The position numbers and the translations under genes are program-made. From the NCBI GenBank assembly GCA_003157485.1, contig PMJQ01000101.1:11443-75442 (forward strand): a DNA stretch of 64,000 nucleotides, in the 5' to 3' direction. Positions 43,528 to 64,000 of this stretch are shown piece by piece (position 1 is the stretch's first letter; the number at the start of each line of letters is the position of its first letter). The stretch is from Ignavibacteriota bacterium (GTDB taxonomy: Bacteria > Bacteroidota > Ignavibacteria > UBA10030 > UBA6906). Below the pieces are notes generated by a model. That model saw only the letters and a program-made list of their open reading frames with translations. It was not told the DNA's origin and searched no databases.

Positions 43528-44910
43528 ATGGACGAAACAACGATGGCCTATGATACGCTTCTCATACCGGACACATCAGGATTCACGTTTGGCAGGGCCC
43601 CGAAGCCGGTCGAGTGCGGATCGGGTCTGAATGTCGGGGGCGGGAAGGTCTTTCCCGAGCTGAACTTCACGCTCCCCCCGATGGCGATTACGGCGGGGAC
43701 ATGGCAGTCCGTCATGGCCGAATACAGGGAGATCGGAGAGATGATACTGCGCGCGGCCCCGAGGCTCCGTCTCCCGGGCCTCATGGTGGAATTCGAGCTC
43801 CTTCCCCCGATGACTGAGACGCCGGAGTGGGGGGCGGAGATTGTGACGCTCCTGCACGAGACGCTCCGGCGCCTGCATGAAGAGAGCGGTATTCCCTGCG
43901 CGCTCCGCGTGACGCCGACCGACATAAGGGACATGGAACGCCCCCCGCTCCTCCGCCGGGGGCGCTCGTGGGAGGCGCTGTGCGTTTCTCTCACCTCGTG
44001 CGCGCGCGCGGGTGCGGATCTCCTTTCGATCGAATCGGTCGGCGGCAAGGAAGTGCACGACCAGTCTCTCCTCTACGGGGACGTGCACGGAATGATCTTC
44101 GCCCTGGGCGTCCTTGCTCCGCGTGACATGGAATTTCTCTGGGACGCGATCGTGCGGATCTGCAAAGAGACTGGGGTCGTCCCCGGTGCCGACTCGGCGT
44201 GCGGATTTGCGAACACTGCGATGCAGCTGGCTGGACAGGGGATGCTCCCCGAGGTCCTGGCTGCCGTCGTACGCGCCGCCTCCGCGGTCAGGAGCCTCGT
44301 CGCATTCTCGCGCGGGGCCGTGGGCCCTTCCAAGGATTGTGCGTACGAAGGACCTGTGATCAAGGCCATCACCGGAGCTCCGATCTCCATGGAAGGGAAA
44401 TCGGCGTCATGCGCGCATTTCAGCCCGGTGGGGAATATCGCCTCCGCGCTGTGCGACCTCTGGAGTAACGAATCGGTCCAAAACGTCAGGCTCCTCTCCG
44501 GATCCGCCCCCGAAGCGTTTCTGGAATCTCTTGCGTACGACTGCCGGGTCATGAACCAGGCGCTCCGCAGTGGGCGTGAGAGGGAGTACCGCGACCTCCT
44601 TGTCGAATCTGATGTCCATCTGAGCCCACAGGCGCTTGTCCTCTCCCCGGATTCCACGATCAGGATTGCGGAGTCTATCGTCCGGGAAACGACGCCGTAT
44701 CGTCAGACATGCTCCGCGGCCCGTGAGGCGGTCACGCTGATCCGGGATGCGATACGCGAGGAGAGGCTCGTTATCCCGAAGCGGGAGTCGCAGTGGCTCG
44801 ACAGGATAGAATCCGCTCTCGATTCTCTTCCTGAAAAGGAAGAGGAGCTGATCGCGCCCATGATCGGGAGCTACGGCAGCCTGTTCACCCCGTCGAGTTA
44901 CGGACTCTGA
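43528..44910 (+). CDS. mtaB: MtaB-family methyltransferase (methanol:corrinoid methyltransferase homolog)
   Basis: Full-length collinear similarity to my recollection of Methanosarcina MtaB: 'ADLLSIESVGGKEVHD', 'GADSACGFANTAM', 'AVGPSKDCAYEGPVIKAITGAPISMEGKSASCAH', 'CDLWSNESVQ', 'LAYDCRVMNQAL', C-terminal '...PSSYGL'. Confidence 0.8.
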   Translation: MDETTMAYDTLLIPDTSGFTFGRAPKPVECGSGLNVGGGKVFPELNFTLPPMAITAGTWQSVMAEYREIGEMILRAAPRLRLPGLMVEFELLPPMTETPEWGAEIVTLLHETLRRLHEESGIPCALRVTPTDIRDMERPPLLRRGRSWEALCVSLTSCARAGADLLSIESVGGKEVHDQSLLYGDVHGMIFALGVLAPRDMEFLWDAIVRICKETGVVPGADSACGFANTAMQLAGQGMLPEVLAAVVRAASAVRSLVAFSRGAVGPSKDCAYEGPVIKAITGAPISMEGKSASCAHFSPVGNIASALCDLWSNESVQNVRLLSGSAPEAFLESLAYDCRVMNQALRSGREREYRDLLVESDVHLSPQALVLSPDSTIRIAESIVRETTPYRQTCSAAREAVTLIRDAIREERLVIPKRESQWLDRIESALDSLPEKEEELIAPMIGSYGSLFTPSSYGL

Positions 44911-44918
44911 GTGAGACC

Positions 44919-45869
44919 ATGAGCGCGTCGGCGGCCCTTGGAGAGTGGATCATGGGACTGGATATCGGCGGGACAAAGACCGCCGTTGTCGCAGGAGACT
45001 CACTCGGCGGCGTCCTCCACCGTGATCAGTTTCCCACAGAACCGGCGCGGGGGTTCAGTGACGTCTATGCCCGGATACAGAGATCGATGGCCCGGGTTGC
45101 GTCGCACATGGGGAGTTCCCCGCACGCGGTGAGCGTCTCCATCGGCGGCCCTCTCGATGTCCGGCGGGGGATCATCAAGTCACCGCCGAACCTCCCGGGG
45201 TGGACGGACATCCCGCTTAAGGAGATGCTCTCCCGGGAGTTCCCTGTCCCCGTGTTCGTCGAACACGACGGGAACGCGGGTGCGCTGGCTGAATGGTACT
45301 TCGGGGCCGGAAAGGGGTTCAGGAACATCGTGTTTGTGACAATGGGGACGGGGTTCGGGGCGGGACTGATACTGGACGGGAGGCTTTACAGGGGGACGAG
45401 CGATGTGGCCGGGGAGATCGGTCATGTGCGCGTTGCCGAGGAAGGGCCCGACTGCTACGGCAAAGCGGGCTCGCTTGAAGGATTCGGCAGCGGAACGGGG
45501 ATCGCGCGCCTCGCCCGGACGATGTACCCCGCTCTCTGGGGCGAAGACTCCACGGTCATCGACGTTGAGGAATCGTACAGGGGGGGATCGCGCGAGGCGG
45601 CGTCTGTTTTTTCAAGGGCCGCGATCGGTCTGGGGCGCGGACTGGCGATCGTGGCCGATATGCTGAATCCCGAGCGGATCATACTCGGCGGGCTCGGCAT
45701 GCGTCTCTCGGAGTCGCTCGTCAGACCCGCTATGAGGATCTATGAGGCCGAGGCTCTTCCCGGGGCTCGGAACGTGTGCGAGATCGTCCCGGCCGGCCTG
45801 GGTGAGAGGATCGGCGACATCGCCGCTCTCTGCGCTGCATACGACCAGGGCGCACTCCTCGCGCCCTGA
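44919..45869 (+). CDS. ROK family sugar kinase
   Basis: 'MGLDIGGTKTAVV', 'VFVEHDGNAGALAEW', 'GTGFGAGLILDGRLYRG', 'AGEIGHVRV...CYGKAGSLE'. The start may be the internal 'MGLDIGG' at 44952. Confidence 0.85.
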   Translation: MSASAALGEWIMGLDIGGTKTAVVAGDSLGGVLHRDQFPTEPARGFSDVYARIQRSMARVASHMGSSPHAVSVSIGGPLDVRRGIIKSPPNLPGWTDIPLKEMLSREFPVPVFVEHDGNAGALAEWYFGAGKGFRNIVFVTMGTGFGAGLILDGRLYRGTSDVAGEIGHVRVAEEGPDCYGKAGSLEGFGSGTGIARLARTMYPALWGEDSTVIDVEESYRGGSREAASVFSRAAIGLGRGLAIVADMLNPERIILGGLGMRLSESLVRPAMRIYEAEALPGARNVCEIVPAGLGERIGDIAALCAAYDQGALLAP

Positions 45870-45908
45870 TGTGCCGCCGGGGAAAATTCACATGACACGG
45901 AGATTCAC

Positions 45909-47048
45909 ATGAGAGAGCTTGCGATCCCCCTGGATCACCCTTCACCCGACGGGGGCGAATTCATCGACATACTCTCGGGGCGGTCCCCTTCACACAGGGT
46001 CCCTCTCGTCGAATATCTCGTGGACGACGCAGTGATGAAGCCGGTCCTGGAGGAGATGCTCGGACGGCGGTGGGTCAACCCCGGCAGTGACAGGGAGTCG
46101 CAGCGGGCCTCTCTCGACAACCGCATTGAATTCTGGTACCGGATGGGATACGATTTCATCCGGCACGAGGAGAGCCTCCCGCTGCCGGAGAAAAAACTCA
46201 TGGGGCATGATCCGGCGATGCCCGTGGCGCAGAAGGCGCCGCCGGATGCGCCGGCTCGTCTGTGGGCGGACGAGCATCAGGGTGCGATCATGTCATGGGA
46301 GGATTTTGAGAAGTATCCCTGGCCTGCCGTGGAAGAATTTGATTTCTTCGGATACGAGTACCTGAGCCGGAACCTCCCGGAGGGGATGGGGCTCGTCGCC
46401 TGCCACGCCGGAGGGGTGTTCGAACATCTCTCATGGATCATGTCTCTCGAGGGGCTCTCTGTGGCGCTTCACGAAGATCCGGAGCTCGTCAGAGCGGTCG
46501 CAGACAGGCTGGGGCATCTGATGGAGGGGTTCTACAGGCACGTCCTTGATCTCGATAACCTCATCGCCGTCTTCCCCGGGGACGACATGGGGTACAAGTC
46601 GGCGACGCTCGTGGCGCCCGGGATTCTCCGGACGTATGTTCTCCCCTGGCATGCGAGGTTTGCGGCGATGACGCACGCGAAGAATCTTCCCTATTACCTC
46701 CACTCCTGCGGCAGGGTGGATGCGGTCATGGAGGACCTGATCACGGACGTGGGAATCGACGGAAAACATTCGTTCGAGGACGGCATCGTCCCCGTCCAGG
46801 ATTTCCAGGCCAGGTACGGCGGCAGGATCGCTGTCCTCGGGGGGATCGACATCAACATACTCGCAGGCCCTTCCCCTGATGACGTGCGGCACGCGACGAG
46901 CCGGCTGATCACCGTGTGCGGATCGCGCGGCCGCTACGCCGTCGGATCGGGGAACTCCATCCCGAGTTACGTCCCATGCGGAAATTATCTCGCCATGATC
47001 GACGAGGCGCACCGCGCGAACAATGATATGCTCTCTCCCCGGAGATAA
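45909..47048 (+). CDS. uroporphyrinogen decarboxylase (UROD) family protein, MtaA/CmuA-like, with H-x-C-G motif
   Basis: 'VFPGDDMGYKSATLVAPGILRTYVLPWHARF', 'YYLHSCGRVDAVMEDLITDVGIDGKHSFED', 'AVGSGNSIPSYVPCGNYLAM'. Confidence 0.75.
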   Translation: MRELAIPLDHPSPDGGEFIDILSGRSPSHRVPLVEYLVDDAVMKPVLEEMLGRRWVNPGSDRESQRASLDNRIEFWYRMGYDFIRHEESLPLPEKKLMGHDPAMPVAQKAPPDAPARLWADEHQGAIMSWEDFEKYPWPAVEEFDFFGYEYLSRNLPEGMGLVACHAGGVFEHLSWIMSLEGLSVALHEDPELVRAVADRLGHLMEGFYRHVLDLDNLIAVFPGDDMGYKSATLVAPGILRTYVLPWHARFAAMTHAKNLPYYLHSCGRVDAVMEDLITDVGIDGKHSFEDGIVPVQDFQARYGGRIAVLGGIDINILAGPSPDDVRHATSRLITVCGSRGRYAVGSGNSIPSYVPCGNYLAMIDEAHRANNDMLSPRR

Positions 47049-47057
47049 GGAGGTCAA

Positions 47058-49316
47058 GTGAAGGTTCGCCTGACGATGGTCCTGCTCTGCGCGCTCGCGT
47101 TTCAGGTTGTGCAGGCACAGAAGCGGGAGTACCTGGAGGACATACGCGCCGCGGCGGAAAAAGGGTGGAATGACGACCCCGCTGTTGTCGCCGCGTGGAA
47201 GAAGCACGCGGATCCGAACGTCCTCTGGGGATACAACCCGCCGGCGCATCCCGTCTATTGTGCGGCCGTGTCCGGCTTCCTCTTTGAACAGACGCACGAG
47301 CGTGTGTACGCCGAGAGAGCGGCCGCGCTTCTCAGTTCGTACGGCGATCTCCGGGCCTCGATCCCTCACGGGTACGCCGGGTCGCGCATCGAGTACGAAA
47401 ACGGCGTCCCGTCCCTCACGAACTTCTTCTTCCTTCCCCCGTACGTCCGAGCATATCTCGCGATCCGGTCAAGCGACGCGCTTGACGCACGCCAACGCGC
47501 GAATATCGAAGGAGAGATCGCGGAGAGCGTCGACTTCATATTCCGCTTCCCCGAGTGGGGGGCACACAACCGCGCCATGCTCAGGGCAGAGGCCCTTGCG
47601 TACGCCGCGCTGGCGCTCCCGTCCCATCCGCATGCGGCGAAGTGGAGGCAAATGGCGCAGGTCCTCGCCTCGGACAATATCCGTTCCTGGGAGATCGAAG
47701 ACGCGTCGAACTACAACCCGGTCTGGCTTCACGCCCTCTTCTCGTATGCCTCCGCCGCGGGGGATTCGGGGGTGTACACCTCGGCGGTGATGAGATACTA
47801 CATGGAGTACTACACGAGGCTCATCTCCCCCGCCGGGACCGTTCCCGATTTCGGAGACGCGGGATGGAATAACGCCTCCGGAGGGCTCCGTCTCGTGGCG
47901 GTGTTCGAGAAAGGCGCGGCGGTGTTCCGCGATCCCGCATTGAAATGGGCCGCACAGTCCGTGTACAACACCGCGAAGAGGAGAGAGAGCATTCTCGGGA
48001 TAGACGAGGCATATCACCTCGCGGATGCGTTCCGCTGGGCCGCGGAGTCCGTTTCCCCGGTCGTCCCTTCCGGCGGGAGCCAGGAGGTTCTGGACGATGT
48101 CGTGGGGAAGAAGGTGGTCTTCCGCGGGGGGTGGGATTCTTCCGCGTCGTATCTCCTTCTCAACTACAGGGACGAGGGGGACGGAGGATGGCTCTCCCGG
48201 CAGTACCTTCGTCAGACGATCACCGTCGAGGAGGAAAAGATGACGCACGGCCATGCCGACGAGAATTCGATCGTGCTCCTGATGGACAGGGGATCCGTCC
48301 TGCTTCACGACGGGGGGTACAGAGATTCCCTCCCGAGCGGCCGGTTCGGCGCGTGGAGGCAGGATTACTTCCACAATCGGATTGTCGCGCGGAAGAACAA
48401 GCGCGACATGAGCCAGTCGCTCCTTGCATTCGTGCGGAACTCCGGAGCGTACCGCCGCGTGAAAACCGAAAAGATCGATTTTCTTGCGCTTCGCTCGGTC
48501 GACATGAGCCGGACGCGGCTCGTGGACGAGGAACTCGGGTATCGCTGGGACCGCGTGATCACGTGGGTGAGGGACCCGGGGTACTATGTCGTTGTTGACG
48601 GCATACAGGCCATCCGCCCGGAGTATTTCACGTTTGCCTCGCTCTGGCACGCGCAGAACGTCCTGGAGCGGGGGGAGCATTACTTCGACATTGCCACGGA
48701 TTCCGTCCCGGGATACAGGTTTCCGCCGGGGCGGTCTCTCCTCGTCTTCTTCCCGGAGACATACGCGAAAACCGAGGGGGTGGAGGATGAGCGGAGGCAC
48801 TCCCAGCAGGAGCACGTCGTGTTCCAGACGATCTCGAGCCAGTACAAGGCGCTCGACATGGAGCTCTTCGTCACCGTTCTCGTGCCGCACGACCGTTCGG
48901 TCTCACCCCGTTCGTTCATCCCCGCCTTCCGGCTTCTCCCGACGTCCGCCCCCTACCGCGCCGTGGCGCTTGAGGTCACGCGGGGAAACCTCAAGAGCAC
49001 GCTCTTTGTGAAGCTCGACCTTGAAATGGAAATTGCGCGCGAGAACATCCGCCCGCGGTATCTCTACGATGCCGGCAGGGTCAGGTTCGGGGACTTTGAG
49101 ACCGACGCCCACTTCCTCTACGCGGAGGAGACCCCCGACTCGATCCGGTATTCCGCTTCGAACATGCTGAAAGTCGTCTACAGGGGGAAAGCGCTCATGG
49201 AGGCGCTTCCGAACACGCACGGGCTCCAGCCCGACGGCGGGCCGGACAACCACGTCGGGTACTCGAAATGGCGGTACTGGGAAGAAGCGTTCTCACTCAA
49301 GGAAAAGGGACAATGA
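47058..49316 (+). CDS. secreted heparinase II/III-like polysaccharide lyase family protein
   Basis: GTG start with SD AAGGAGG 5 nt upstream. Signal 'MKVRLTMVLLCALAFQVVQAQ'. 'EWGAHNRAMLRAEALAYAALAL', 'THGHADENSIVLLMDRGSVLLHDGGY'. Confidence 0.7.
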   Translation: MKVRLTMVLLCALAFQVVQAQKREYLEDIRAAAEKGWNDDPAVVAAWKKHADPNVLWGYNPPAHPVYCAAVSGFLFEQTHERVYAERAAALLSSYGDLRASIPHGYAGSRIEYENGVPSLTNFFFLPPYVRAYLAIRSSDALDARQRANIEGEIAESVDFIFRFPEWGAHNRAMLRAEALAYAALALPSHPHAAKWRQMAQVLASDNIRSWEIEDASNYNPVWLHALFSYASAAGDSGVYTSAVMRYYMEYYTRLISPAGTVPDFGDAGWNNASGGLRLVAVFEKGAAVFRDPALKWAAQSVYNTAKRRESILGIDEAYHLADAFRWAAESVSPVVPSGGSQEVLDDVVGKKVVFRGGWDSSASYLLLNYRDEGDGGWLSRQYLRQTITVEEEKMTHGHADENSIVLLMDRGSVLLHDGGYRDSLPSGRFGAWRQDYFHNRIVARKNKRDMSQSLLAFVRNSGAYRRVKTEKIDFLALRSVDMSRTRLVDEELGYRWDRVITWVRDPGYYVVVDGIQAIRPEYFTFASLWHAQNVLERGEHYFDIATDSVPGYRFPPGRSLLVFFPETYAKTEGVEDERRHSQQEHVVFQTISSQYKALDMELFVTVLVPHDRSVSPRSFIPAFRLLPTSAPYRAVALEVTRGNLKSTLFVKLDLEMEIARENIRPRYLYDAGRVRFGDFETDAHFLYAEETPDSIRYSASNMLKVVYRGKALMEALPNTHGLQPDGGPDNHVGYSKWRYWEEAFSLKEKGQ

Positions 49317-50155
49317 AAACAACGACGGTGAATTCGGGCCGCACGATACGCATACAGAGGATCTGGAAACACCCCCGTGCGGTCATCATCCCCTATGATC
49401 ACGGCACCTACTCGGGAGTTGTCAAAGGACTCGAGGACCCCCTGCGCCTCACGGAGAGGATCGCCCGTTCGAAGGCCGACGCGGTTCTCGTGACGCCGGG
49501 CGTCCTCAGGATCATCGCCCCGGCCGTCGGAAATCTCGGCGTCGTCCTCAGGATCGACGGCGCGTATACGTCATACGCCACTGCCCCGACTGATTTCCTC
49601 TCGATGATAACGCCGGAGGACGCCCTGCGGCTCGGCGCGGATGCGGTGATCGTCTTCACGTTCATCGGCATTCCGGACGAGGCGTCTTCACTCCAACGGC
49701 TGGGGCGGACCTCCGCGGACGCCGGGCTGTGGGGGATCCCTCTCATCGCGGAAGTCCTCGCTCCCGGCTACCTGAACAATCACTTCGGCACGGATATATT
49801 CCCCCGTGCGGGGCGGAAGACGGATATGGTCGCCGACACGAGGAATGTCTCGCGCATCGCCATGGAGGCGGGGGCGGAGATCATCAAGACGAGGTACACG
49901 GGGGACGTCGCCGGGTTCCGCTCCGTCGTGGAAACCTGCGGGGCGCCCGTGATCGTCGCCGGGGGGCCGAAACTGGACGGGACGGACGAATCCCTTCTCC
50001 GGCTCGCGCACGATTGCATGGGCGCGGGGGCCGCCGGGATCATATTCGGCCGGAACGTCTGGCAGCACCCGAAAATGGAACGCCTGATCAACGCGATCTG
50101 CGCGATCGTCCATGAGGAGGAGAGCGTCCAGTCCGCCCTGAAACTGCTCAGATGA
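49313..50155 (+). CDS. class I aldolase of the DhnA/FbaB (DeoC/LacD superfamily) type
   Basis: 'AVIIPYDHG', 'DAVLVTPG', 'AEIIKTRYTGD' (Schiff-base Lys context), 'APVIVAGGPK', 'AGIIFGRNVWQHP'. ATGA overlap upstream. Confidence 0.75.
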   Translation: MKTTTVNSGRTIRIQRIWKHPRAVIIPYDHGTYSGVVKGLEDPLRLTERIARSKADAVLVTPGVLRIIAPAVGNLGVVLRIDGAYTSYATAPTDFLSMITPEDALRLGADAVIVFTFIGIPDEASSLQRLGRTSADAGLWGIPLIAEVLAPGYLNNHFGTDIFPRAGRKTDMVADTRNVSRIAMEAGAEIIKTRYTGDVAGFRSVVETCGAPVIVAGGPKLDGTDESLLRLAHDCMGAGAAGIIFGRNVWQHPKMERLINAICAIVHEEESVQSALKLLR

Positions 50156-55644: not shown

Positions 55645-57425
55645 TCGACCAGATCAAGCACGTCAACGTCGTCGACTACTGCGTCATCGCGGGCTATCTG
55701 CTCATGCTGACGGGGACCGGGTTGTACGTCACGAAGTTCAACAAGAACGCCGACGACTATTTCAAGGGGGGCGGGAAGATCCCGTGGTGGATCTCCGGAC
55801 TTTCGACGTTTGTCGCCGGGTTTTCGGCGTTCATGTTTGTCGGGGCCGCGGGGTATACGTACAGGAAGGGGATCGGATCGGCCGTCCTCTTCACGAGCGC
55901 GTTCTGGGGGTACGGCATGGGGTATTTTCTGTACGCCGTGCGCTGGAAGAGGGCACGTCTCTCCTCGCCGATGGAGTTCCTGACCCGCAGGTTCTCCCAG
56001 GGAACGACGTATTACTATACGCTGCTGTCGATCGTCCCCGCGGTGATGGGGCTCGGGCTCGGGATCTACATCCTGTGCATATTCGTTGCCACCGCGATGG
56101 GGATCATGGACCTCTCGGTGACGATCGGCTTTCTCACGCTGAGCGGGCTCGAGCTTTCGATGGTTGTCACGGGGATCGTCCTCCTGATTTACACGAGCGC
56201 CGGCGGCCTGTGGGCGGTGATGATAACCGATGTCATGCAGTTCTTCATTATCCTCATCGTCACGCTTCTCATTTCCCCCCTCGCGTTCTTCGCGCTGGGG
56301 GGGAGCGGGGGGTTCTTCCATGCGTTTGCGCGGATCGCACACGAGACGCCCCCCGGGTACCTCAGTTTCGCCGATGTGCTGCGGAACCCGCTCTTCTATC
56401 TCGCGTACCTGTTCAGCACGTTTATCGGGTACAACGCGGCATGGCATATCGGGCAGCGGTACTACAGCGTGCCGACGGAACGCGACGCCAGGAAGATCTC
56501 GGTCCTCTGCGCGCTCCTGATGCTGACGGTACCGCTCTTCTGGCTTGCGCCGACGATGGCCGCGCGCGTCCTGTTCCCCGACATGGCCCGCCTCTGGCCG
56601 CAGCTCTCGGAGCCGTCGGAGGCGTCGTTCGTGACACTGGCCCTCTCCCTCCTCCCCAACGGGCTGATCGGGCTGACGATATCGGCGATCCTGGCGGCGA
56701 CGATGACGCATACGGACACTGCTTTGAACTACCTCGCCTCCATACTCGTCCGGGACGTCTACATGAAGCTCAGGAAAACGTTCTCTCACTCGGTGCCGGG
56801 AGAGCGCCGCCAGCTCTTCGTCGCGCGCGTGACGACGTTCACGCTCGGGTTCCTCGCGATCGCGACGGCGATCATCGTCCAGCGGACAAAGGGGGTCTTC
56901 GATTTCGCCCTGCTCTATTATTCGTGGTTCGGCCCGTCTATGATGACCCCCGTCATGCTCGGATTTCTCTACACGAAGACCCCTTCCTGGTCGGCGAGCG
57001 CCGCGGCCACCGTGAGCCTTGCCGTCGTCCTGGCATGCAACACGGTGATCGACGTGCGTCCCTACCAGTACGAGGTGAACATATTCGGCGGGATACTCGT
57101 CTCGGCCGCGGTGTTTTTCCTCTCCGCTTTCTGGCCGGAGAAAAATCCGGCCTCGCGCGCGAGGATCGAGGCATTTGCGGCCGATCTCAGGACTCCCGTG
57201 ACGGGGACGAGCTCCGTGTGGGACAGGAACGCGCTCCACTCCTATCTCGTCGTCGGCGTCCTGACCGTGATCATCGGCTGTGCGCTTCTTGCGCTCACGA
57301 TCGTTCCCGCCGGCATCGAAGTGCGGACGCTGACGCTTGTCATGGGAATCGCGACGATGGCGCTCGGCGGCGGTATGCTCCTCTATTTCCGGAGTCAGCT
57401 TGCGAAAGGGACAGAAAATGGATAA
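55641..57425 (+). CDS. sodium:solute symporter (SSS) family transporter
   Basis: 'NADDYFKGGGKIPWWISGLSTFVAGFSAFMFVGAAGYTY'. Polytopic. ATGA overlap upstream. Confidence 0.85.
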   Translation: MIDQIKHVNVVDYCVIAGYLLMLTGTGLYVTKFNKNADDYFKGGGKIPWWISGLSTFVAGFSAFMFVGAAGYTYRKGIGSAVLFTSAFWGYGMGYFLYAVRWKRARLSSPMEFLTRRFSQGTTYYYTLLSIVPAVMGLGLGIYILCIFVATAMGIMDLSVTIGFLTLSGLELSMVVTGIVLLIYTSAGGLWAVMITDVMQFFIILIVTLLISPLAFFALGGSGGFFHAFARIAHETPPGYLSFADVLRNPLFYLAYLFSTFIGYNAAWHIGQRYYSVPTERDARKISVLCALLMLTVPLFWLAPTMAARVLFPDMARLWPQLSEPSEASFVTLALSLLPNGLIGLTISAILAATMTHTDTALNYLASILVRDVYMKLRKTFSHSVPGERRQLFVARVTTFTLGFLAIATAIIVQRTKGVFDFALLYYSWFGPSMMTPVMLGFLYTKTPSWSASAAATVSLAVVLACNTVIDVRPYQYEVNIFGGILVSAAVFFLSAFWPEKNPASRARIEAFAADLRTPVTGTSSVWDRNALHSYLVVGVLTVIIGCALLALTIVPAGIEVRTLTLVMGIATMALGGGMLLYFRSQLAKGTENG

Positions 57426-58212
57426 TCAGGTTCCGGTTGTCATCGTAACGGGCGCCAGCCGCGGGCTCGGACGGGGTATCGCGCTCCGGCTCGCGGACCT
57501 CGGCTATTCTGTCGCAATCAATTACGCGGGAAATGCAGCGGCGGCGGCGGAGACCGCCGCTCTGTGCGACAAAAAGCGGATTCTCCCGGCGCAGAAATTT
57601 CTCCCCGTGAAGGCGGACGTGGGGTCCGGAGCGGACAGGGCCGCGCTCGTCGAGCGGACGCTCGGGGAGTTCGGGCGGATCGACGCGCTTGTCAACAATG
57701 CCGGCGTCGGGCCTGGCACGAGGGCCGATATCACGGAAGCGTCCCCGGCGGTATTCCGGGAGGTCATGTCGACGAACCTCGAAGGCCCGTACTTCCTCAC
57801 ACAGGCGGTGGCGAACTACTGGCTGAAGGAGAAGCCCGCCCCCCTGCTGCGGCGCGGGTTTGTCGTGGTATTCAATACCTCGATATCGGCGCTCACGGCG
57901 TCGCTCAACAGGGGAGAGTACTGCGTGTCGAAAGCCGGGCTCTCCATGGGGGCGAAGCTCTGGGCGCTCCGGCTGGCGGGGGAAGGGATACAGGTGTTCG
58001 AGCTCCGCCCCGGCATCATGGCGACGGACATGACGGCGGGTGTGAAAGGAAAATACGACGCCATGATTGCCTCCGGGGGAGTGCCGATGAAACGCTGGGG
58101 GACGCCGGAGGATGTGGGGTTTGCTGTCGGCGCCATCCTGTCCGGCGATTTTCCCTACTCGACCGGCGAAATCATCTACGTTGACGGCGGGCTGCACCTG
58201 CCGGGACTGTGA
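57418..58212 (+). CDS. short-chain dehydrogenase/reductase (SDR), 3-oxoacyl-ACP reductase / KduD-like
   Basis: 'VVIVTGASRGLGRGIA', 'LVNNAG', 'YCVSKAG' (YxxxK). 8-nt overlap with the symporter gene. Confidence 0.85.
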   Translation: MDNQVPVVIVTGASRGLGRGIALRLADLGYSVAINYAGNAAAAAETAALCDKKRILPAQKFLPVKADVGSGADRAALVERTLGEFGRIDALVNNAGVGPGTRADITEASPAVFREVMSTNLEGPYFLTQAVANYWLKEKPAPLLRRGFVVVFNTSISALTASLNRGEYCVSKAGLSMGAKLWALRLAGEGIQVFELRPGIMATDMTAGVKGKYDAMIASGGVPMKRWGTPEDVGFAVGAILSGDFPYSTGEIIYVDGGLHLPGL

Positions 58213-58218: not shown

Positions 58219-59598
58219 ATGATCGCGATTGACACATCGATTGACGCGGGGGATCTCCGTGCCCCGCTTGAGAACCTCTTTGCCCTCTCCGGCGCCAAAA
58301 TCATGTCGCTCCGGAGGAGATGGAATCCTTCGAAGGGAGCCCCGGTATTCACGGTGGACGGGCTCTACACGTCGCGGGGGTGGACCGAATGGACTGAAGG
58401 GTTCATGTTCGGGTCCGCTCTCCTGCAGTTCGACGCGACGGGGGAGAAGGAATTCCTGGAGATCGGCCGCACGGGCACGGTGAACGAAATGGCGCCCCAT
58501 GTCAGTGCAACGGGGGTGCATGACCACGGGTTCAACAATGTGAGCACGTACGGTAATCTCCACAGGATGATGCGCGAGGGGCTCATCCCGCATAACGCAT
58601 GGGAAATGGATTTTTATGCGCTCGCGCTCAAGGTGAGCGGCGCCGTCCAGGCCTCCCGGTGGACGGACTTGGCGAAGGGTGGGGGGTACATCTGTTCATT
58701 CAACGGTCCTCATTCCCTCTTCGCAGACACTGTCCGCTCGCTCCGTTCGCTCGCGCTCGCCCACCAGCTCGGCCACGTGCTCGCGGGGGAAAGGGACGTG
58801 AAGATATCGCTCCTCGGGCGTCTGATCGCCCATGCGGAGGCGACAGCGAAATACAACGTCTACTTCGGGGAAGGTCGCGATATATACGACGTGCGTGGCC
58901 GCGTGGCCCACGAGTCGATATTCAACACGAGGGACGGTTCCTACCGGTGCCCCTCATCGCAGCAGGGATATTCCCCCTTCACGACGTGGACCCGCGGGCT
59001 GGCCTGGATCATCTGCGGATTTGCCGAGGAGGCCGAGTTCCTTGCCTCCCTCCCGGAGGGCTCGTTCGGGGAGTACGGGGGGAAATCGAATGTGCTGGGC
59101 GCCTTCCTGAGAACTGCGGAGGCGACAGCCGACTTCTACATCGAGAACACTCCCGCCGACGGCGTCCCCTACTGGGATACCGGCGCGCCGGGGCTCGCGC
59201 GGCTGGGCGACTACCTCGCGCGCCCCGCCGATCCGTTCAACGGGGAGGAGCCCGTGGACAGTTCGGCTGCGGCGATTGCCGCGCAGGGGCTCGTCAGGCT
59301 CGGTATGCATCTGAAGTCCGCGGGACGCGGGGCCGACGGTAACAGGTACCTCCGTGCGGGGCTCACGACTGCGCGGACCCTTTTCTCCGACCCGTACCTG
59401 AGCCGTGCGGAGTCGCACCAGGGACTCCTGCTCCACTCGGTGTATCACCGTCCCAACGGATGGGATCACGTAGGTGCAGGGAGGAGAATCCCCTGCGGCG
59501 AATCCTCCATGTGGGGGGATTACCACGCCAGGGAACTCGCGCTCCTCGTAAGAAGGATGGGAGAGAAGAAGCCGTACTACAGGTTCTTTATCGGCTAG
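58219..59598 (+). CDS. GH88/GH105-type unsaturated uronyl hydrolase
   Basis: 'GVHDHGFNNVSTYGNL', 'TTWTRGLAWIICGF', 'DSSAAAIAAQGLVRLG', 'GESSMWGDYHARELALL'. No signal peptide. Confidence 0.75.
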   Translation: MIAIDTSIDAGDLRAPLENLFALSGAKIMSLRRRWNPSKGAPVFTVDGLYTSRGWTEWTEGFMFGSALLQFDATGEKEFLEIGRTGTVNEMAPHVSATGVHDHGFNNVSTYGNLHRMMREGLIPHNAWEMDFYALALKVSGAVQASRWTDLAKGGGYICSFNGPHSLFADTVRSLRSLALAHQLGHVLAGERDVKISLLGRLIAHAEATAKYNVYFGEGRDIYDVRGRVAHESIFNTRDGSYRCPSSQQGYSPFTTWTRGLAWIICGFAEEAEFLASLPEGSFGEYGGKSNVLGAFLRTAEATADFYIENTPADGVPYWDTGAPGLARLGDYLARPADPFNGEEPVDSSAAAIAAQGLVRLGMHLKSAGRGADGNRYLRAGLTTARTLFSDPYLSRAESHQGLLLHSVYHRPNGWDHVGAGRRIPCGESSMWGDYHARELALLVRRMGEKKPYYRFFIG

Positions 59599-59614
59599 GG
59601 GAGTGTGCGTGCGG

Positions 59615-59641: not shown

Positions 59642-59694
59642 CGTGCGGCGCATCGCCAGAGGCCTCTGCGCGTTTCTGACAATCTCTGAGAGGG

Positions 59695-61212
59695 TCATCG
59701 ATCTCCGGTTTCCGTGGGGAATCTCATTTCTTCGACGTAGACATCCTGGAAATCGCCGTCGGAGTCAAGCGCGATATGGCGCACGCCGGAGGCGAGTTCG
59801 TCGTAGGCCCCGGGCTCGTCGAAGAGCGCCCGCTTTGCCCCCCGCAGCGCGGTATTCCCCGAAGGGACGATCCTGTCGGGGGGGAAATTCACAAGCCCGA
59901 TTGTTTTCGCGCTCGCGGTGTTGACGTAGTTGCCGAAAGCGCCCGCCAGGTAGACGCGCGCGATATCCCCCTCCGCAAGTCCGGACTTCCCGAGCAGTAT
60001 GCGGACCCCTGCCGCTATCGCCCCCTTTGCAAGCTGGAGCTCGCGGATGTCCGTCTGCGTCAGTGCCACCGGGTCCGCAATCATGATGGACGGCTCGCGC
60101 CCGGTGAACCGGCCCCCCGGAGTGATGCGCCCCAGGCGCAGGAGGACCGCCGCGGCGTCCACAAGCCCGCTTCCGCAGATCCCCCGCGGTGCGACGTCGC
60201 CGAGCGTCCTGCACGCGAGTCCTCCCCCCGGACCTGGCTCGACTTCCGCGATCGCCCCCGTCGCTGCCCGCATTCCCATGGAGATCCTCGCTCCTTCAAA
60301 CGCGGGGCCTGCCGCTGTGGAGCAGCAGAGTAGTCCTCCCCGGGATCCGATCACGATTTCGCCGTTCGTCCCGAGGTCGATCAGGCAGAGGGGGACGTCG
60401 CTCCTGTGGAGGTTGACCGCGAGTATCCCCGCGAGTATGTCGCTCCCCACGAACCCTCCAAGGCAGGGGAGAAACCGTATGCTCCCTCCGGCGCTCCACC
60501 CGAGATCCTCCGCGCGGAATGGCTCCATGCCGTCGCGGACCGGCTCGAACGGGTAACGGGAGAGCGGCGTGCAGTCGATCCCGCAGAAGAGGTGATGCAT
60601 CACCGTGTTGCCGACGAGAACGACGTCCGTGAGCGACGCGGGGTCCGCCTTCCCCTTCCGGAGGAGTTCGCCGATCATTGCGCCTGTCTGGGTACGTATC
60701 AGCGCGGTGAGGAGCTCCTGTTTTTTCTCGTTGACGGCGAACCCGACGCGGCTCATGACGTCCGCGCCGTGCCTGGCCTGTGCATTGAGCGCAGTGGCGA
60801 CGGCGAGGACGTCGGCGGTGCGGAGATCAAGGAGCTGGGCCACGAGCGTTGTTGTCCCCACGTCGATGGCGATGCCGAGCCCGCTCCGCGGCGTGAATGC
60901 GAATGGCGATTCGTCGGAGAGTATCGCCGCTTCCCACTGGGCGAGCTCGAGCGTGAGGTCTTCCTCCGCCCGGCAGTGGCATGCAAGGCGCCAGCCGGCG
61001 TCGAGCTCCCCGGGCGAGAGTATCCGCTCCTGCTCGGCCGTGACCGGGAGCGTTCCTTCGAGAACGCGCACGCGGCAGCCCTTGCAGCGGGCGCGCCCGC
61101 CGCAGGGGAATTCCACGCCGTACGGGAAGAGGACCTCCTGCAGCGGCGAACCGCGGGGGACCTCGAACGCGGCGCCGAGCGGCCGGAGCGTGATGCGGAC
61201 GCTCGCCGTCAT
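59695..61212 (-). CDS. RACo-type reductive activator of corrinoid proteins (2Fe-2S ferredoxin domain + ASKHA/DUF4445 ATPase)
   Basis: N-terminal 'FPCGGRARCKGCRVRVLEG...WRLACHC'. ASKHA 'GIAIDVGTTTLVAQLLDL', 'LIDLGTNGEIVIG', 'STAAGPAFEGARISMGMRA'. Confidence 0.85.
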   Translation of the reverse strand: MTASVRITLRPLGAAFEVPRGSPLQEVLFPYGVEFPCGGRARCKGCRVRVLEGTLPVTAEQERILSPGELDAGWRLACHCRAEEDLTLELAQWEAAILSDESPFAFTPRSGLGIAIDVGTTTLVAQLLDLRTADVLAVATALNAQARHGADVMSRVGFAVNEKKQELLTALIRTQTGAMIGELLRKGKADPASLTDVVLVGNTVMHHLFCGIDCTPLSRYPFEPVRDGMEPFRAEDLGWSAGGSIRFLPCLGGFVGSDILAGILAVNLHRSDVPLCLIDLGTNGEIVIGSRGGLLCCSTAAGPAFEGARISMGMRAATGAIAEVEPGPGGGLACRTLGDVAPRGICGSGLVDAAAVLLRLGRITPGGRFTGREPSIMIADPVALTQTDIRELQLAKGAIAAGVRILLGKSGLAEGDIARVYLAGAFGNYVNTASAKTIGLVNFPPDRIVPSGNTALRGAKRALFDEPGAYDELASGVRHIALDSDGDFQDVYVEEMRFPTETGDR

Positions 61213-61958
61213 GTGTCGGCCTTCTCCGCGCGTATCAGATCATTCGTATAGTCCGGGGCGATTCTGAACCCGGGGGGGACGGTGAGGAACTCCCGTTCAT
61301 CCCACGGCCCGTTGACGAGGGCGCGGAGAAGCCGGATGTCCCCCTGTTCGGTTGTGAACTCCAGCCCTTTTTCCCCGGCCCGCTTCCTCGCCGTGGCAAG
61401 GAACGAGCCGTCGGGTTCCAGTCCCATGGCGATGAACGTCAGCTTCTTGTAGTGTTTTGTCTGGTCGCAGAGCTGGTCGTAGAGGTACTGCGCGTTGTCT
61501 TCGCCGTATTTTTCGACGAGCTCCCCGTATGTCATGTCCATCCCGTTGGCGTGCTGTATCGAAAGCTGGCGGAGGTCTCCGGTCGCTTCCCCCCGTTCGA
61601 TCCACCCGGTCGTGAGGAAATACGTCCCCGGATTTTTCCGGAAATACTCTTCGTAGCGCTCCCTGCTCCCGAAGAAGAGCGTCATGCAGTCGTGTGCGCG
61701 GGGGACGACAAGAGGCAGCCCGCGGGCGGCGAGCCCGGCGATCCCGTTGTTGCAGAGCCCGTAGCCGAGGAGGATCATGTCGCAGAGCGATTCGTCCACG
61801 CGGTCGACGGCGGCCTGGAGCCGCTCGCGCATGCCGGAGCATCCGATGTCGTGGAGACCCTTGGGGAGAAACACGAGGTCCACCTGGTGGGGAGAGCGCG
61901 CGGCCGTCTCGCAGAGCTCGCGCGTAAACACTTCGCAGCTGATGAGCGTGAGTCGCAT
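61209..61958 (-). CDS. DUF1638 domain protein (typically linked to corrinoid methyltransferase operons)
   Basis: 'MRLTLISCEVFTRELCE', 'ILLGYGLCNNG', 'VVPRAHDCMTLFFGS'. 4-nt overlap with the RACo start. Confidence 0.7.
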   Translation of the reverse strand: MRLTLISCEVFTRELCETAARSPHQVDLVFLPKGLHDIGCSGMRERLQAAVDRVDESLCDMILLGYGLCNNGIAGLAARGLPLVVPRAHDCMTLFFGSRERYEEYFRKNPGTYFLTTGWIERGEATGDLRQLSIQHANGMDMTYGELVEKYGEDNAQYLYDQLCDQTKHYKKLTFIAMGLEPDGSFLATARKRAGEKGLEFTTEQGDIRLLRALVNGPWDEREFLTVPPGFRIAPDYTNDLIRAEKADT

Positions 61959-61982
61959 GCGCGTGCGGCCTCTCCTGTTCGT

Positions 61983-62861
61983 CTAGCGGGCCGGGTGGAG
62001 CGCCGCCGCAAGGGCGCGGATGAATTCCGGTGTCGTGCCGCAGCAGCCGCCGATGAAGTCCGCGCCCGCCCGGCGCAGCGCGAGGGACCCGGCGCTGAAC
62101 TCCTCCGGCGTCGTCCGGTACGTGATATGTCCCTCCGCCATCTCCGGCATCCCCGCGTTCGGCTTGATCCAGAGGGGGAGGGTCGTCGCTTTTCTGAGGC
62201 GTGTGCAGACGGGGATGTATCCTTCGATGCCGAGTCCGCAGTTGGCGCCGATGGCGTCGGCGCCTGCGTCGGCAAGGGCGGCGGCGACCTGTTCGGGGGT
62301 CGTACCCATCATCGTCCGGTCATGCTCTTTGCCCGAATCGAAGACCATGCTCGCGATGACCGGCAGCCCGGTGGTCCGGGCGGCGCGGAGGGCGATCCGC
62401 GCCTCTTCAATATCGGACATCGTCTCGATGAGTATCGCGTCGGCGCCGGCGACGGCGAGCGCATGGCATTGCTCGGCGAATGCCTCCGTGAGCTCGTCCT
62501 CCGTCACTTCCCCGGACATGAGCATTTTCCCGCTCGGCCCGACGGAGGCGAACACCCGCGCCCGCCCGCGGGCGGCCTTCCGCGATATGCCGACTCCGGC
62601 GGCGTTGAGCGCCGCGGCGTCCACCCCCCCTCCGTGGGAGGCGAGCGCGATCCGGTTCGACCGGAACGTGTTCGTCAGGATCACGGCGCTCCCCGCCTCG
62701 ACGTAACGGGAAGCGACCTCTTCCACCCGGTCCGGATGGGAAAGGTTCCAGAGGTCGGGATGCTCTCCCGGTGCCAGGCCCTGTTTCTGAAGCTCGGTCC
62801 CCCATGCGCCGTCCGTGACGACGGGGGCGTGTGCGAGAAGGGACGTGAGAAGGGGATGCAC
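61983..62861 (-). CDS. homocysteine S-methyltransferase domain protein (MetH N-terminal module / BHMT-like)
   Basis: GTG start chosen 10 nt downstream of the corrinoid-protein stop. 'VVTDGAWGTELQK', 'ILTNTFRSN', 'ADAILIETMSD'. Zn-ligand contexts 'IGANCGLG' and 'IGGCCGTTPEFI'. Confidence 0.8.
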   Translation of the reverse strand: MHPLLTSLLAHAPVVTDGAWGTELQKQGLAPGEHPDLWNLSHPDRVEEVASRYVEAGSAVILTNTFRSNRIALASHGGGVDAAALNAAGVGISRKAARGRARVFASVGPSGKMLMSGEVTEDELTEAFAEQCHALAVAGADAILIETMSDIEEARIALRAARTTGLPVIASMVFDSGKEHDRTMMGTTPEQVAAALADAGADAIGANCGLGIEGYIPVCTRLRKATTLPLWIKPNAGMPEMAEGHITYRTTPEEFSAGSLALRRAGADFIGGCCGTTPEFIRALAAALHPAR

Positions 62862-62871
62862 CGGCGTGGCC

Positions 62872-63507
62872 CTACGCCGCGACAAGCCTGCGGGCCAGCG
62901 CGACGGCCGCGTTCGCGTTGCTCGAGTAGCCGTCCGCGCCGATTTCATCGGCGTATTTCTGCGTGACCGGCGCGCCCCCGATCATCACCTTGACGCCGGG
63001 GCGCATCCCCGATTCGTTCAGCTTCTCCACGACGCCCTTCATGGAATGCATCGTCGTCGTCAGGAGGGCGGAGAGCGCGACGAGCGTCGCGTGCTTCTCT
63101 TTTGCCGCGTTGATGAATTTTTCGGGGGAGACGTCGACGCCGAGGTCGATGACTTCGAACCCGGCCCCCTCGAGCATCGCGCCGACGAGGTTCTTGCCGA
63201 TGTCGTGCAGGTCCCCTTGTACCGTGCCGATAACCACCCGTCCGACGGGCTCCGACCCGCGTGCGGACAGAAGAGGCCGGATGAGTTCGAGGGAGGCTTT
63301 CATCGCCCGTGCGGCGATGAGAAGCTCGGGGACGAAATACTCGTTTGCCTCGTAGCGGCGGCCGACTTCGTTCATCGCGGGGATCATCGTGTCGTCAACG
63401 AGGGCCTGGGGGTTCACCCCGGAGGCGAGGCTCGTCTGTGTGATTTCTTTCGCGGCTTTGGCGTTGCCGTTGAGTATCGCGTCGTAGAGCGTCTGGATCA
63501 CTGGCAT
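62872..63507 (-). CDS. cobalamin-binding corrinoid protein (MtaC/MtbC/MetH-B12-domain-like)
   Basis: B12-binding-2 cap 'AILNGNAKAAKEITQTSLASGVNPQALVDDTMIPAMNEVGRRY'. 'GTVQGDLHDIGKNLV' (DxHxxG), 'ALSALLTTTM', 'VMIGGAPV'. SD GAGGAG upstream. Confidence 0.9.
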   Translation of the reverse strand: MPVIQTLYDAILNGNAKAAKEITQTSLASGVNPQALVDDTMIPAMNEVGRRYEANEYFVPELLIAARAMKASLELIRPLLSARGSEPVGRVVIGTVQGDLHDIGKNLVGAMLEGAGFEVIDLGVDVSPEKFINAAKEKHATLVALSALLTTTMHSMKGVVEKLNESGMRPGVKVMIGGAPVTQKYADEIGADGYSSNANAAVALARRLVAA

Positions 63508-63527
63508 GGCGTTCTCCTCTCGTTGGG

Positions 63528-64000
63528 TTACAGCGCACCGTATTCGTGAATGGTGTCGTACATTGTGACAATGTTGAGCGTCGGCGTGACAGGCTGGAGA
63601 TTGTGGCAGGGGGCGCAGACCCATCGCGCGCTTCTGAAGATCTCGATGTTCTGGAGAACCTCCCGTCTGACGTCCCCGGCGGACCCGAACGGGAGCGTCT
63701 GCTGGTTGTCCATCGCTCCGTGAAACACGACCCTCTTCCCGAAGTCGCGCACGAGGCCTTCCCGTTCCATTCCCGGACACCGCCATTGTATCGGATTGAG
63801 AAGCTCGATCCCGGTGACGTCGAGAAGATCCGGGATGACCGGGCGCACCGCGCCGTCCGTGTGGTAGAACACGTGGATGCCGTAGCTGCGCGCCAGGTCC
63901 GCCATCTTCTTCTGGTTCGGGAGAAAGAACCTCCGGATCTGCGGGAGGCTCATGAGGAGCGACGTCTGCCCTCCGAGGTCCTCCGCGATGTACGTCACGC
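63528..64000 (-). CDS. UROD family (MtaA/CmuA-like) methyltransferase-type protein, C-terminal part only (runs off the window)
   Basis: 'IAEDLGGQTSLLMSLPQIRRFFLPNQKKMADLARSYGIHVFYHTDGAVRPVIPDLLDVTGIELLNPIQ', 'APCHNLQPVTPTLNIVTMYDTI'. Stop TAA at 63528-63530. Confidence 0.7.
   Translation of the reverse strand, partial: VTYIAEDLGGQTSLLMSLPQIRRFFLPNQKKMADLARSYGIHVFYHTDGAVRPVIPDLLDVTGIELLNPIQWRCPGMEREGLVRDFGKRVVFHGAMDNQQTLPFGSAGDVRREVLQNIEIFRSARWVCAPCHNLQPVTPTLNIVTMYDTIHEYGAL

Follow-up and report, generated by a model that had tools for sequence, protein, structure and literature searches.

A corrinoid methyl-transfer gene set interleaved with a glycan-catabolic locus in Ignavibacteriota: candidate methanol salvage

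Gene content of the window

A 64,000-nucleotide (nt) stretch of the genome of an Ignavibacteriota bacterium (assembly GCA_003157485.1, contig PMJQ01000101.1, positions 11,443 to 75,442; hereafter the window, with a G+C content of 63%) carries an MtaB-family methyltransferase gene, three genes for divergent MtaA/uroporphyrinogen decarboxylase (UROD)-like proteins and a corrinoid operon, within or next to genes of glycan catabolism (Table 1). The + strand genes form a single co-directional array (952-59598); between 43528 and 59598 the gaps range from about 1 to 39 nt and several neighbours overlap by 4-8 nt. The array is followed by a convergent - strand operon of five genes, UROD_C-CP-HcyMT-DUF1638-RACo, in which CP is a corrinoid protein, HcyMT a MetH-type homocysteine S-methyltransferase module and RACo a reductive activase. 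Contigs L009-L011, identical over the shared stretch, extend the window and give UROD_C a full length of 349 amino acids (aa) and the first place in the operon.

The window proteins were profiled with Pfam, NCBIfam and the PDB, and predicted folds were compared by Foldseek. All of them were also searched against 80 species-level genome loci (numbered with L) that carry the MtaB clade, 43 from the Fibrobacteres-Chlorobi-Bacteroidetes (FCB) group and KSB1 (Ignavibacteriota, Bacteroidota, Kryptoniota, KSB1) and 37 of the Acidobacteriota type (Acidobacteriota and others). For UROD_A the context was counted in 43 metagenome loci that are 8 kb or longer.

An earlier interpretation of the window from its letters alone (the sequence-only reading) had listed the methyl-transfer genes with their coordinates and families. 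All are present, with strong family scores in the profile searches, and they make up the complete toolkit that it had claimed: a first methyltransferase (MT1), a corrinoid protein, a thiol-methylating second methyltransferase (MT2) and an activase. Its picture of one tight array with many 4-nt overlaps among the sugar genes stands as to packing and neighbours, but the five - strand genes constitute a separate convergent operon. Of the lyases that it named, the one encoded at 47058-49316 resembles the heparinase type only distantly and below threshold; the other neighbours are as it had described them.

Table 1 Genes of the methyl-transfer system and of the surrounding array, in window positions
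Gene	Position	Strand	Assignment	Basis
core-MetE	7838-8863	+	Meth_synt_2 catalytic domain only, 341 aa	Pfam E 2e-44
unk759	8835-11114	+	unk774 paralogue, no signal peptide, start codon uncertain	38% identity to unk774
MtaB	43528-44910	+	MtaB-family zinc methyltransferase, candidate MT1 (candidate methanol:corrinoid methyltransferase)	Pfam 521 bits, E 3e-156
ROK	44919-45869	+	ROK-family sugar kinase	Pfam E 8e-51; NCBIfam ROK glucokinase family 160 bits, below cut-off
UROD_A	45909-47048	+	divergent MtaA/UROD-superfamily protein	Pfam URO-D E 1e-13, C-terminal half only
752-aa protein	47058-49316	+	secreted, distantly heparinase II/III-like (PL12/PL17-type)	signal peptide; own Pfam match sub-threshold
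Aldolase	49313-50155	+	DhnA/LacD-type class I aldolase	Pfam DeoC E 4e-32; NCBIfam ADH-synthase/FBP-aldolase-like
PfkB	50152-51078	+	1-phosphofructokinase-type hexose-phosphate kinase (PfkB family)	TIGR03168 267 bits, cut-off 216
UROD_B	51089-52117	+	MtaA-like protein	Pfam URO-D E 2e-41; best PDB match MtaA 4ay7, E 8e-17
unk774	52143-54467	+	cytoplasmic, 774 aa, undescribed family	GH20/GH67/GH84/GH89/GH115-type predicted architecture
GlyK	54469-55644	+	glycerate kinase	Pfam E 2e-131; TIGR00045 434 bits, above cut-off
SSF	55641-57425	+	sodium:solute symporter	Pfam E 3e-37; gene call in L009-L011
SDR	57418-58212	+	short-chain dehydrogenase	profile annotation
GH88-like	58219-59598	+	GH88-like hydrolase (unsaturated glucuronyl hydrolase type), no signal peptide	PDB 1vd5 E 7e-10
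RACo	59695-61212	-	RACo/RamA-type reductive activase	Fer2 PF00111 + Raco_middle PF17651 + RACo_C_ter (ASKHA) PF14574
DUF1638	61209-61958	-	DUF1638 protein	Pfam E 6e-36
HcyMT	61983-62861	-	MetH-type homocysteine S-methyltransferase module, candidate MT2	S-methyl_trans PF02574 E 4e-67
CP	62872-63507	-	corrinoid protein, 211 aa, His-on	B12-binding_2 PF02607 + B12-binding PF02310
UROD_C	63528-64000	-	first operon gene, cut by window end, full length 349 aa	URO-D E 3e-12

MtaB, the corrinoid operon and core-MetE

The PF12176 match of MtaB covers model positions 7-460 of 460, that is, the full length. In the alignment with MtaB of M. barkeri (PDB 2i2x; E 4e-94) each of the zinc ligands Glu164, Cys220 and Cys269 is matched by the same residue, and these three are invariant across 57 members of the clade. 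On sequence comparison the window MtaB is a member of a distinct bacterial clade (59-92% identity) with representatives in Ignavibacteriota, Bacteroidota, Kryptoniota, KSB1, Acidobacteriota, NC10 and one Roseiarcus; the closest one (92%) belongs to an Ignavibacteriota metagenome-assembled genome (MAG), and many members originate from fen, bog and soil samples. A corrinoid protein adjoins MtaB in about 50 loci of the clade, but neither in the window nor in loci L012-L018. In one Ignavibacteriae MAG (L007 7347-11374) a solitary MtaB gene directly follows a pyridoxal phosphate (PLP) enzyme of Cys/Met metabolism and a PALP-family enzyme, which hints at a link to sulfur amino acids.

The components of the - strand operon are likewise intact at their recognisable sites. 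CP matches 1y80 (E 5e-56) and has the DxHxxG motif in the form GDLHDIG, and HcyMT matches MetH of T. maritima (1q7m; E 4e-45) with its zinc cysteines kept (the Cys of GANC and the Cys-Cys of GGCCG). DUF1638 is a genetically defined partner of RamA-like activases (Price 2018, PMC5764234). The operon abuts the GH88-like, SDR and SSF genes in three genomes: the window, an 83% relative, and a distant genome in which MtaB lies 1.8 Mb away. Neither the window nor four loci yielded a riboswitch at Rfam gathering scores, and none appeared at E <= 1 in 350 nt around the start of UROD_C, so that neither an S-adenosylmethionine (SAM) nor a cobalamin riboswitch was seen near the operon.

A further potential homocysteine methylase, core-MetE, lies at the other end of the array. 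Its zinc ligands HxC..E..C align with those of 3rpd (an intact site), its score of 310 bits is below the NCBIfam equivalog cut-off of 406, and its homologues adjoin UROD_B-CP-MtaB in six Kryptoniota/Bacteroidota loci. By these sequence criteria it is a candidate methyl-corrinoid:homocysteine methyltransferase.

The UROD/MtaA-like proteins

That the UROD-like genes might be genuine hemE orthologues, a possibility raised by the sequence-only reading itself, was rejected: with the HemE model TIGR01464 (equivalog cut-off 303 bits) UROD_B reaches 37.5 bits, while UROD_A and UROD_C give no match. The best family matches of all three are MtaA/CmuA-type methyltransferases, though far below the cut-off of TIGR01463 (235 bits; UROD_A 33, UROD_B 74, UROD_C 31 bits). 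They belong to separate, mutually distant subfamilies (about 20-25% identity) that deviate differently from the MtaA zinc motif HxC...C. UROD_A keeps HSC and has Asn in place of the third Cys; UROD_B, like nine of its homologues, has lost all three ligands; UROD_C carries an invariant HTD and a CxxCH instead. The AlphaFold (AF2) model of UROD_C (predicted local distance difference test, pLDDT, 88) is nearest to MtaA 4ay7 (template modelling, TM, score about 0.7; E 4e-14), ahead of HemE (about 1e-9).

The three also differ in distribution. UROD_C belongs to a family 64-85% identical across many Ignavibacteriota and Bacteroidota. UROD_B was found only inside the sugar loci described here and is fixed directly upstream of CP-MtaB in about 20 of them. 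The UROD_A family has sugar-locus neighbours in nine of the 43 metagenome loci and unrelated contexts in the remaining 34, two annotated examples of which place it beside a SAM methyltransferase or competence-type genes. Since the family resides mostly outside sugar loci and its sugar-locus and other members do not fall into clades of their own, UROD_A cannot count as an enzyme specific to the glycan. In relatives UROD_B holds the MtaA position beside CP-MtaB, and UROD_C holds the place of the folate module in a split MetH. On the best explanation UROD_A, UROD_B and UROD_C would be further methyltransferase modules acting on the same carrier. UROD_B as a known type of folate methylase was considered and dropped: MtaA of Moorella is reported as a 29.7-kDa protein, which is not UroD-sized (PMC13391211).

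Other loci hold further members of the superfamily. UROD_A-like proteins of metagenome loci L120-L170 (61-65% identical, LHSCG kept) commonly stand alone, with no corrinoid protein within 10 kb, and the one of L121 adjoins a SAM-dependent methyltransferase gene. Extra UROD genes with a complete MtaA-type HxC...C motif (UROD_E; L092 14925-15887, L093 14907-15890 and 8777-9907) lie directly after RACo or divergently upstream of UROD_C; they are missing from the window.

Conservation of the linkage between MtaB and glycan genes

The sequence-only reading had proposed to look for the co-localisation in relatives. It is conserved, and was acquired repeatedly: members of the MtaB clade lie inside homologous sugar loci in 31 of the 43 FCB-group/KSB1 loci. 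Type 1 (seven loci; MtaB 71-92% identical) has the window order M20-MtaB-ROK-UROD_A-lyase-like-aldolase-kinase-UROD_B-unk774-GlyK. Type 2 (about 15 loci) has the same sugar genes, with UROD_B-(UROD_D)-CP-MtaB between the kinase and unk774. In type 3 (six loci), made of homologues of window positions 952-21291, UROD_B-CP-MtaB stands between the PorV-like gene and unk759-coreMetE. Type 4, the 37 loci of Acidobacteriota and others, is devoid of sugar genes; here CP adjoins MtaB in 26 loci, DUF1638 and RACo are also present in 19, a UROD gene lies upstream in some, and HcyMT occurs within 10 kb of MtaB in two. One of these operons (L056) reads UROD-CP-MtaB-DUF1638-RACo-HcyMT; in this Terracidiphilus MAG (7967-19358) a tRNA gene comes after the operon, and next to follow are the ergothioneine genes EgtB and EgtD, whose products use SAM-derived methyl groups.

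MtaB thus has three insertion points (M20|MtaB|ROK, PfkB-UROD_B|CP-MtaB|unk774 and PorV|UROD_B-CP-MtaB|unk759-coreMetE), and homologous sugar loci with no MtaB inside also exist. Three different positions in related glycan loci argue for selection on co-expression rather than for an inherited accident. The window CP, HcyMT, RACo and DUF1638 are 58-66%, 57-60%, 49-53% and 39-44% identical, respectively, to the products of Acidobacteriota genes sharing an operon with MtaB, and because these orthologues share an operon there, we tie the window MtaB to the neighbouring - strand operon. Comparative genomics gives good support to the coupling of corrinoid methyl transfer to glycan catabolism.

The glycan-catabolic genes

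Two paralogues of the array, unk774 and unk759, have no sequence or profile match in Pfam, NCBIfam or the PDB. Their family comprises 1415 detected homologues, all unnamed, and in most related loci the gene right after MtaB encodes one of its members (unk774 in type 2, unk759 in type 3). The AF2 model of unk774 (pLDDT 81, predicted TM score 0.86) is built of three parts: an alpha/beta domain at the N terminus, a TIM barrel, and a C-terminal domain made of helices. Foldseek aligns it with glycoside hydrolases of families GH20, GH67, GH84, GH89 and GH115 (E 8e-14 to 1e-8), which have the same three-part build, at about 10% identity and with no match at the sequence level; GH20 ranks over GH67 and GH115. 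The model points to unk774 and unk759 as a candidate new glycoside hydrolase family, cytoplasmic in location.

Whether the secreted 752-aa protein is a lyase is less clear. Among 53 representatives of its family Hepar_II_III_C is matched by 14 and Hepar_II_III_N by seven, and the family profile finds PL17 and PL12 lyases at about 3e-4; a profile comparison with the clearer heparinase-like gene of the window was not significant. A lyase-like function is plausible from these profiles, but weakly so. The match of the GH88-like hydrolase to 1vd5 is limited to residues 231-445, and it has no Pfam match at E 0.01.

Upstream, the array encodes GH38, BNR proteins, the clearer heparinase-like protein with a twin-arginine translocation (TAT) signal, two aminotransferases, an IclR regulator and a second SSF symporter. 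At its start (952-7744) stands a triad of a TonB-receptor-like protein (CarboxypepD_reg, weak Plug), an 877-aa secreted protein and an outer-membrane protein of the PorV/PorQ family. Loci of Kryptoniota and Bacteroidota have conserved this set, and Pfam and NCBIfam annotation revealed no SusD-like partner for it. The target glycan is evidently complex and acidic.

Methanol as probable donor and methionine as probable sink

The zinc-ligand neighbourhoods have the same consensus in MtaBs of types 1 to 4, and in 448 aligned columns the sugar-locus MtaBs have no group-specific residues relative to the Acidobacteriota enzymes and MtaB of M. barkeri. Because sugar-locus and other MtaBs match in this way, whereas an enzyme acting on a bulky sugar ether would be expected to differ, methanol is the most economical donor. 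The type-4 operons argue in the same direction, being free of any sugar link: methanol in peat and bacterial mtaB expression are documented, and expression of mtaB by Acidobacteriota there was taken as methanol use (PMC10805028). From these sequence comparisons methanol capture appears more likely than direct demethylation of a methyl sugar. Of the two donors suggested by the sequence-only reading, methanol released from the glycan therefore fits best, while nothing specific points to the O-methyl sugar itself, the MtaB motifs being those of the non-sugar orthologues.

As to the sink, the acceptors of known function near these systems are HcyMT (in the window operon and two Acidobacteriota operons) and core-MetE (in the window and all six type-3 loci), beside UROD-family proteins of unassigned acceptor. 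No pterin-binding module was seen in any Pfam-annotated neighbourhood (window, operon, extended loci and precomputed tables). Since the recognisable acceptors are homocysteine methylases and no pterin-binding module accompanies them, methionine is the probable sink. The data suggest a salvage of the methyl groups that glycan digestion sheds, with methionine as their most likely destination. Our best current reading of the locus, which we put forward tentatively, is methanol salvage that yields methionine.

We propose the following sequence of steps. A methyl-esterified or O-methylated acidic glycan would be broken down, with release of methanol. Taking part in this would be the lyase-like protein that is secreted, the SSF importer, two types of cytoplasmic hydrolase (GH88-like and GH20/67/115-like), and the kinases and aldolase. 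MtaB would then move the methyl group of methanol to the Co(I) of the 211-aa CP, encoded 18 kb away in the convergent operon; for this step the family assignment and the intact active site are established, the substrate and the partner are inferred. HcyMT, and possibly core-MetE, would transfer the methyl group from methyl-Co(III) to homocysteine, yielding methionine, as the module content suggests. Finally RACo and DUF1638, by homology to a genetically defined system, would return the Co(II) protein to Co(I).

Several observations weigh against this proposal. The window MtaB scores 425 bits with the NCBIfam model NF040651, below its equivalog cut-off of 720, and is 37% identical to the archaeal enzyme; with no corrinoid protein adjacent to it, use of the carrier of the neighbouring operon is assumed. 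In 12 of the 43 FCB-group loci MtaB has no sugar-gene neighbours, as would suit a general methanol enzyme. Pfam recognised no methyl-esterase in the window (CE8-type or other) that could serve as the methanol source. HcyMT lies near MtaB in only two of the 37 Acidobacteriota-type loci, which leaves homocysteine unsupported as a general acceptor, and if the methyl flux from the glycan is large, methionine alone would be a small sink. All of the functions are candidate functions read from sequence.

Alternative explanations

The first alternative to methanol salvage is direct demethylation of an O-methyl sugar, with MtaB and/or the UROD proteins passing its methyl group to CP; candidates would be 4-O-methyl-glucuronate, O-methyl-mannose and O-methyl-fucose, with the GH20/67/115-like hydrolase delivering the methylated sugar. 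The placement of an unk774/unk759-family member directly after MtaB in type-2 and type-3 loci speaks for it, as do the fold that this family shares with the alpha-(4-O-methyl)glucuronidases of GH67 and GH115 and the restriction of UROD_B to sugar loci. The UroD superfamily also includes known ether-cleaving O-demethylases (PMC10418091). The chemistry of MtaB, in which zinc activates the alcohol as leaving group, would lend itself in principle to alkyl methyl ethers. We list here too that our literature search yielded no characterised corrinoid-dependent methyl-sugar demethylase, of which the sequence-only reading was not aware either, nor an MtaB in a polysaccharide locus, nor anything relevant on the fate of 4-O-methyl-glucuronate. 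Against these points stand the identical zinc-site motifs of MtaB outside sugar loci with their lack of group-specific residues, the genomes whose locus does without MtaB, the mostly non-sugar contexts and unseparated clades of UROD_A, the lack in UROD_B of a metal site for ether activation, and the precedence of GH20 over GH67 and GH115 in fold matches that are all at about 10% identity. We consider it unlikely that the enzymes act on the O-methyl sugar in this manner, and equally doubtful that the system as a whole demethylates O-methyl sugars of the glycan, directly or after unk774-type release, and passes the methyl group to homocysteine. Were it so, the locus would parallel P450 sugar demethylation while needing no oxygen and conserving the methyl group, and it would amount to a methionine synthase that is fed by the glycan and independent of folate.

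A second alternative, of about the same low probability, separates the two halves of the system: the - strand operon would be a split cobalamin-dependent methionine synthase with UROD_C as its methyl-tetrahydrofolate module, MtaB would scavenge environmental methanol, and the proximity of the sugar genes would be meaningless. The operon indeed has the composition of the split MetH of Phaeobacter except for the folate module, and the high conservation of the UROD_C family (64-85% identity in many Ignavibacteriota and Bacteroidota) is what a core function would lead one to expect. In 12 of 43 FCB-group loci MtaB stands alone, in all Acidobacteriota loci it is outside any sugar context, and peat methanol with bacterial mtaB expression is on record (PMC10805028). 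The independent recruitment of MtaB to three positions of homologous glycan loci argues otherwise, however, as does the adjacency of the operon to the GH88-like, SDR and SSF genes in three genomes of varied relatedness. Furthermore, no UroD-family methyl-folate module is known, the acetogen second methyltransferase (MTII) being of about 30 kDa (PMC13391211), and the search around the operon gave no riboswitch for SAM or cobalamin.

It is very improbable that the UROD proteins are not methyltransferases at all but cofactor-free decarboxylases or other TIM-barrel enzymes of a sugar pathway, leaving only MtaB and the - strand operon to handle the methyl group. UROD_B without metal ligands, UROD_A matching Pfam URO-D in its C-terminal half only and often having no corrinoid protein within 10 kb, and scores that all lie far under the MtaA/CmuA cut-offs would agree with this; the fixed place of UROD_B beside CP-MtaB in about 20 loci, the lead position of UROD_C in a corrinoid operon, its model nearest to MtaA, and best family matches to MtaA/CmuA rather than HemE do not. 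Least probable of all is a shuttle of methyl groups between thio- or seleno-ethers and thiols by MtaA-like proteins via CP, which would fit the UROD_E proteins of relatives with their full HxC..C zinc motif and the one Ignavibacteriae MtaB beside Cys/Met PLP enzymes, but not window UROD proteins that lack the full thiol-activating zinc motif, a window in which Pfam annotation of the proteins found no sulfur or selenium genes, or clusters for which MtaB, DUF1638 and a MetH-type module have not been described and whose type 1 is reported only from obligate anaerobes, mostly Firmicutes (PMC10418091).

Relation to known systems

With the MtaB/MtaC/MtaA systems of methanogens (M. barkeri, 2i2x) and acetogens (Moorella, Acetobacterium) the present genes share a full-length MtaB with the Glu/Cys/Cys zinc site, a His-on corrinoid protein and an ATP-dependent reductive activase; the Moorella order mtaA-mtaC-mtaB is mirrored by UROD_B-CP-MtaB of the relatives (PMC13391211), and a carrier protein and MTII can serve several first methyltransferases (MTI) (PMC13391211). 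They differ in that the window MtaB is under the equivalog cut-off and only 37% identical to the archaeal enzyme, that it sits inside a sugar operon apart from its carrier protein, that the window has neither a coenzyme M-type nor a folate-type MT2 of about 30 kDa, the recognisable acceptors being homocysteine methylases, and that the host is a glycan-degrading Ignavibacteriota of soil or wetland, neither methanogen nor acetogen.

The closest parallels to the - strand operon come from Phaeobacter inhibens, where methionine synthesis depends on a MetH split into three pieces together with a RamA-like protein and DUF1638 (Price 2018, PMC5764234), and from Ruegeria pomeroyi, in which one corrinoid protein is common to glycine betaine demethylation and methionine synthesis (MtgC/MtgD; PNAS 2025, PMC12478193). 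Alike are the separate homocysteine-binding and B12-binding proteins, the RamA/RACo-type activase, DUF1638, and the principle of one carrier that a substrate-specific MT1 can load and that can be unloaded to homocysteine. Here, however, UROD_C stands where the pterin-binding module of the Phaeobacter split MetH would be, the candidate donor enzyme is MtaB (methanol) in place of the Ruegeria MtgB (glycine betaine), and the five genes form one operon, in another phylum and linked to a glycan locus. The arrangement is thus set apart from these precedents by MtaB as candidate donor enzyme, by a gene of the UroD family where the folate module would be expected, and by its glycan context.

The core methionine synthases MesA, MesB and MesC are thought to be fed by corrinoid proteins (Price 2021, PMC7857596). 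Core-MetE resembles them in consisting of the MetE catalytic domain only, with an intact zinc site, and in standing beside CP and MtaB in six relatives; the described Mes families are tied to methanogenesis or the Wood-Ljungdahl corrinoid protein, while the neighbour here is a methanol MT1 in a glycan locus. Clusters of MtaA-like proteins with a corrinoid protein and an activase but no folate methylase were described by Kountz and Balskus (2023), who proposed a role in methyl-sulfur/selenium metabolism (PMC10418091). Compared with these type 1 mlp clusters, and with the UroD-family O-demethylases OdmB and VdmB, the window UROD proteins lack the complete zinc motif; compared with the clusters, MtaB, DUF1638 and the MetH-type module are added, and both taxa and genomic context are different.

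The pairing of a methyl-removing enzyme with a polysaccharide-utilisation locus, which makes the glycan fully usable, has a counterpart of another chemistry. In marine Bacteroidota a cytochrome P450 demethylates 6-O-methyl-galactose in an oxidative, oxygen-requiring reaction that yields formaldehyde, whereas the window system would conserve the methyl group by transferring it to a corrinoid. Pfam annotation of the window proteins found no P450.

Methyl esters and ethers are common on plant, algal and microbial glycans, and methanogens of peat and sediments are fed by the methanol that these give. If abundant glycan degraders among Ignavibacteriota, Bacteroidota and Kryptoniota, together with peat Acidobacteriota, capture these methyl groups via MtaB-type systems, they would compete directly with methylotrophic methanogens and would in addition make methionine without methyl-folate. 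The loci are a defined, testable set of about six proteins, and they point to an undescribed glycoside-hydrolase-like family and several unassigned MtaA/UroD branches.

Neighbouring genes

A module of a dihydroorotate-dehydrogenase-like protein, a small 4Fe-4S ferredoxin, a 'cyclase' and an ArgE/DapE-type M20 deacylase (40453-43505) is always found just upstream of MtaB/ROK (also in L001, L005, L006, L024, L034 and L041). Ahead of it lie an enolase-family gene resembling o-succinylbenzoate synthase (OSBS)/N-acylamino-acid racemase (NSAR) and a FAH-family gene. A sugar-acid (fuconate-type) pathway for the enolase-superfamily and FAH genes was discarded, as the former scores as OSBS/NSAR-like and M20 as an ArgE/DapE deacylase. 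In four relatives a gene for a ferritin-like DUF455 protein is found immediately upstream of FAH (L001 3698-4903, L003 5604-6659, L005 3681-4898, L006 4096-5292); in the window there is seemingly no room for it between 36911-38194 and about 38439-39335, although no direct search was made.

Genes for a GHMP sugar-1-kinase with the galactokinase signature and a nucleotidyltransferase recur beside the loci (L041 15023-19260, L092 364-2333, L009 529-822), accompanied in L041 by an EamA transporter and a GFO/IDH/MocA oxidoreductase; the pair suggests salvage of the freed sugar into a nucleoside diphosphate sugar. Within the window, a class V aminotransferase-fold protein (18043-19368) begins with a TAT-like signal peptide (MKRNEFLRFSASAAFGAAVF...), which suggests a periplasmic PLP enzyme. 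A PhyH-type Fe(II)/2-oxoglutarate dioxygenase (11131-11922), an oxygen-requiring enzyme, is encoded in the same array as the oxygen-sensitive Co(I) system. Just past the window end lies a gene of the fatty-acid-hydroxylase family (L009 4914-5564).

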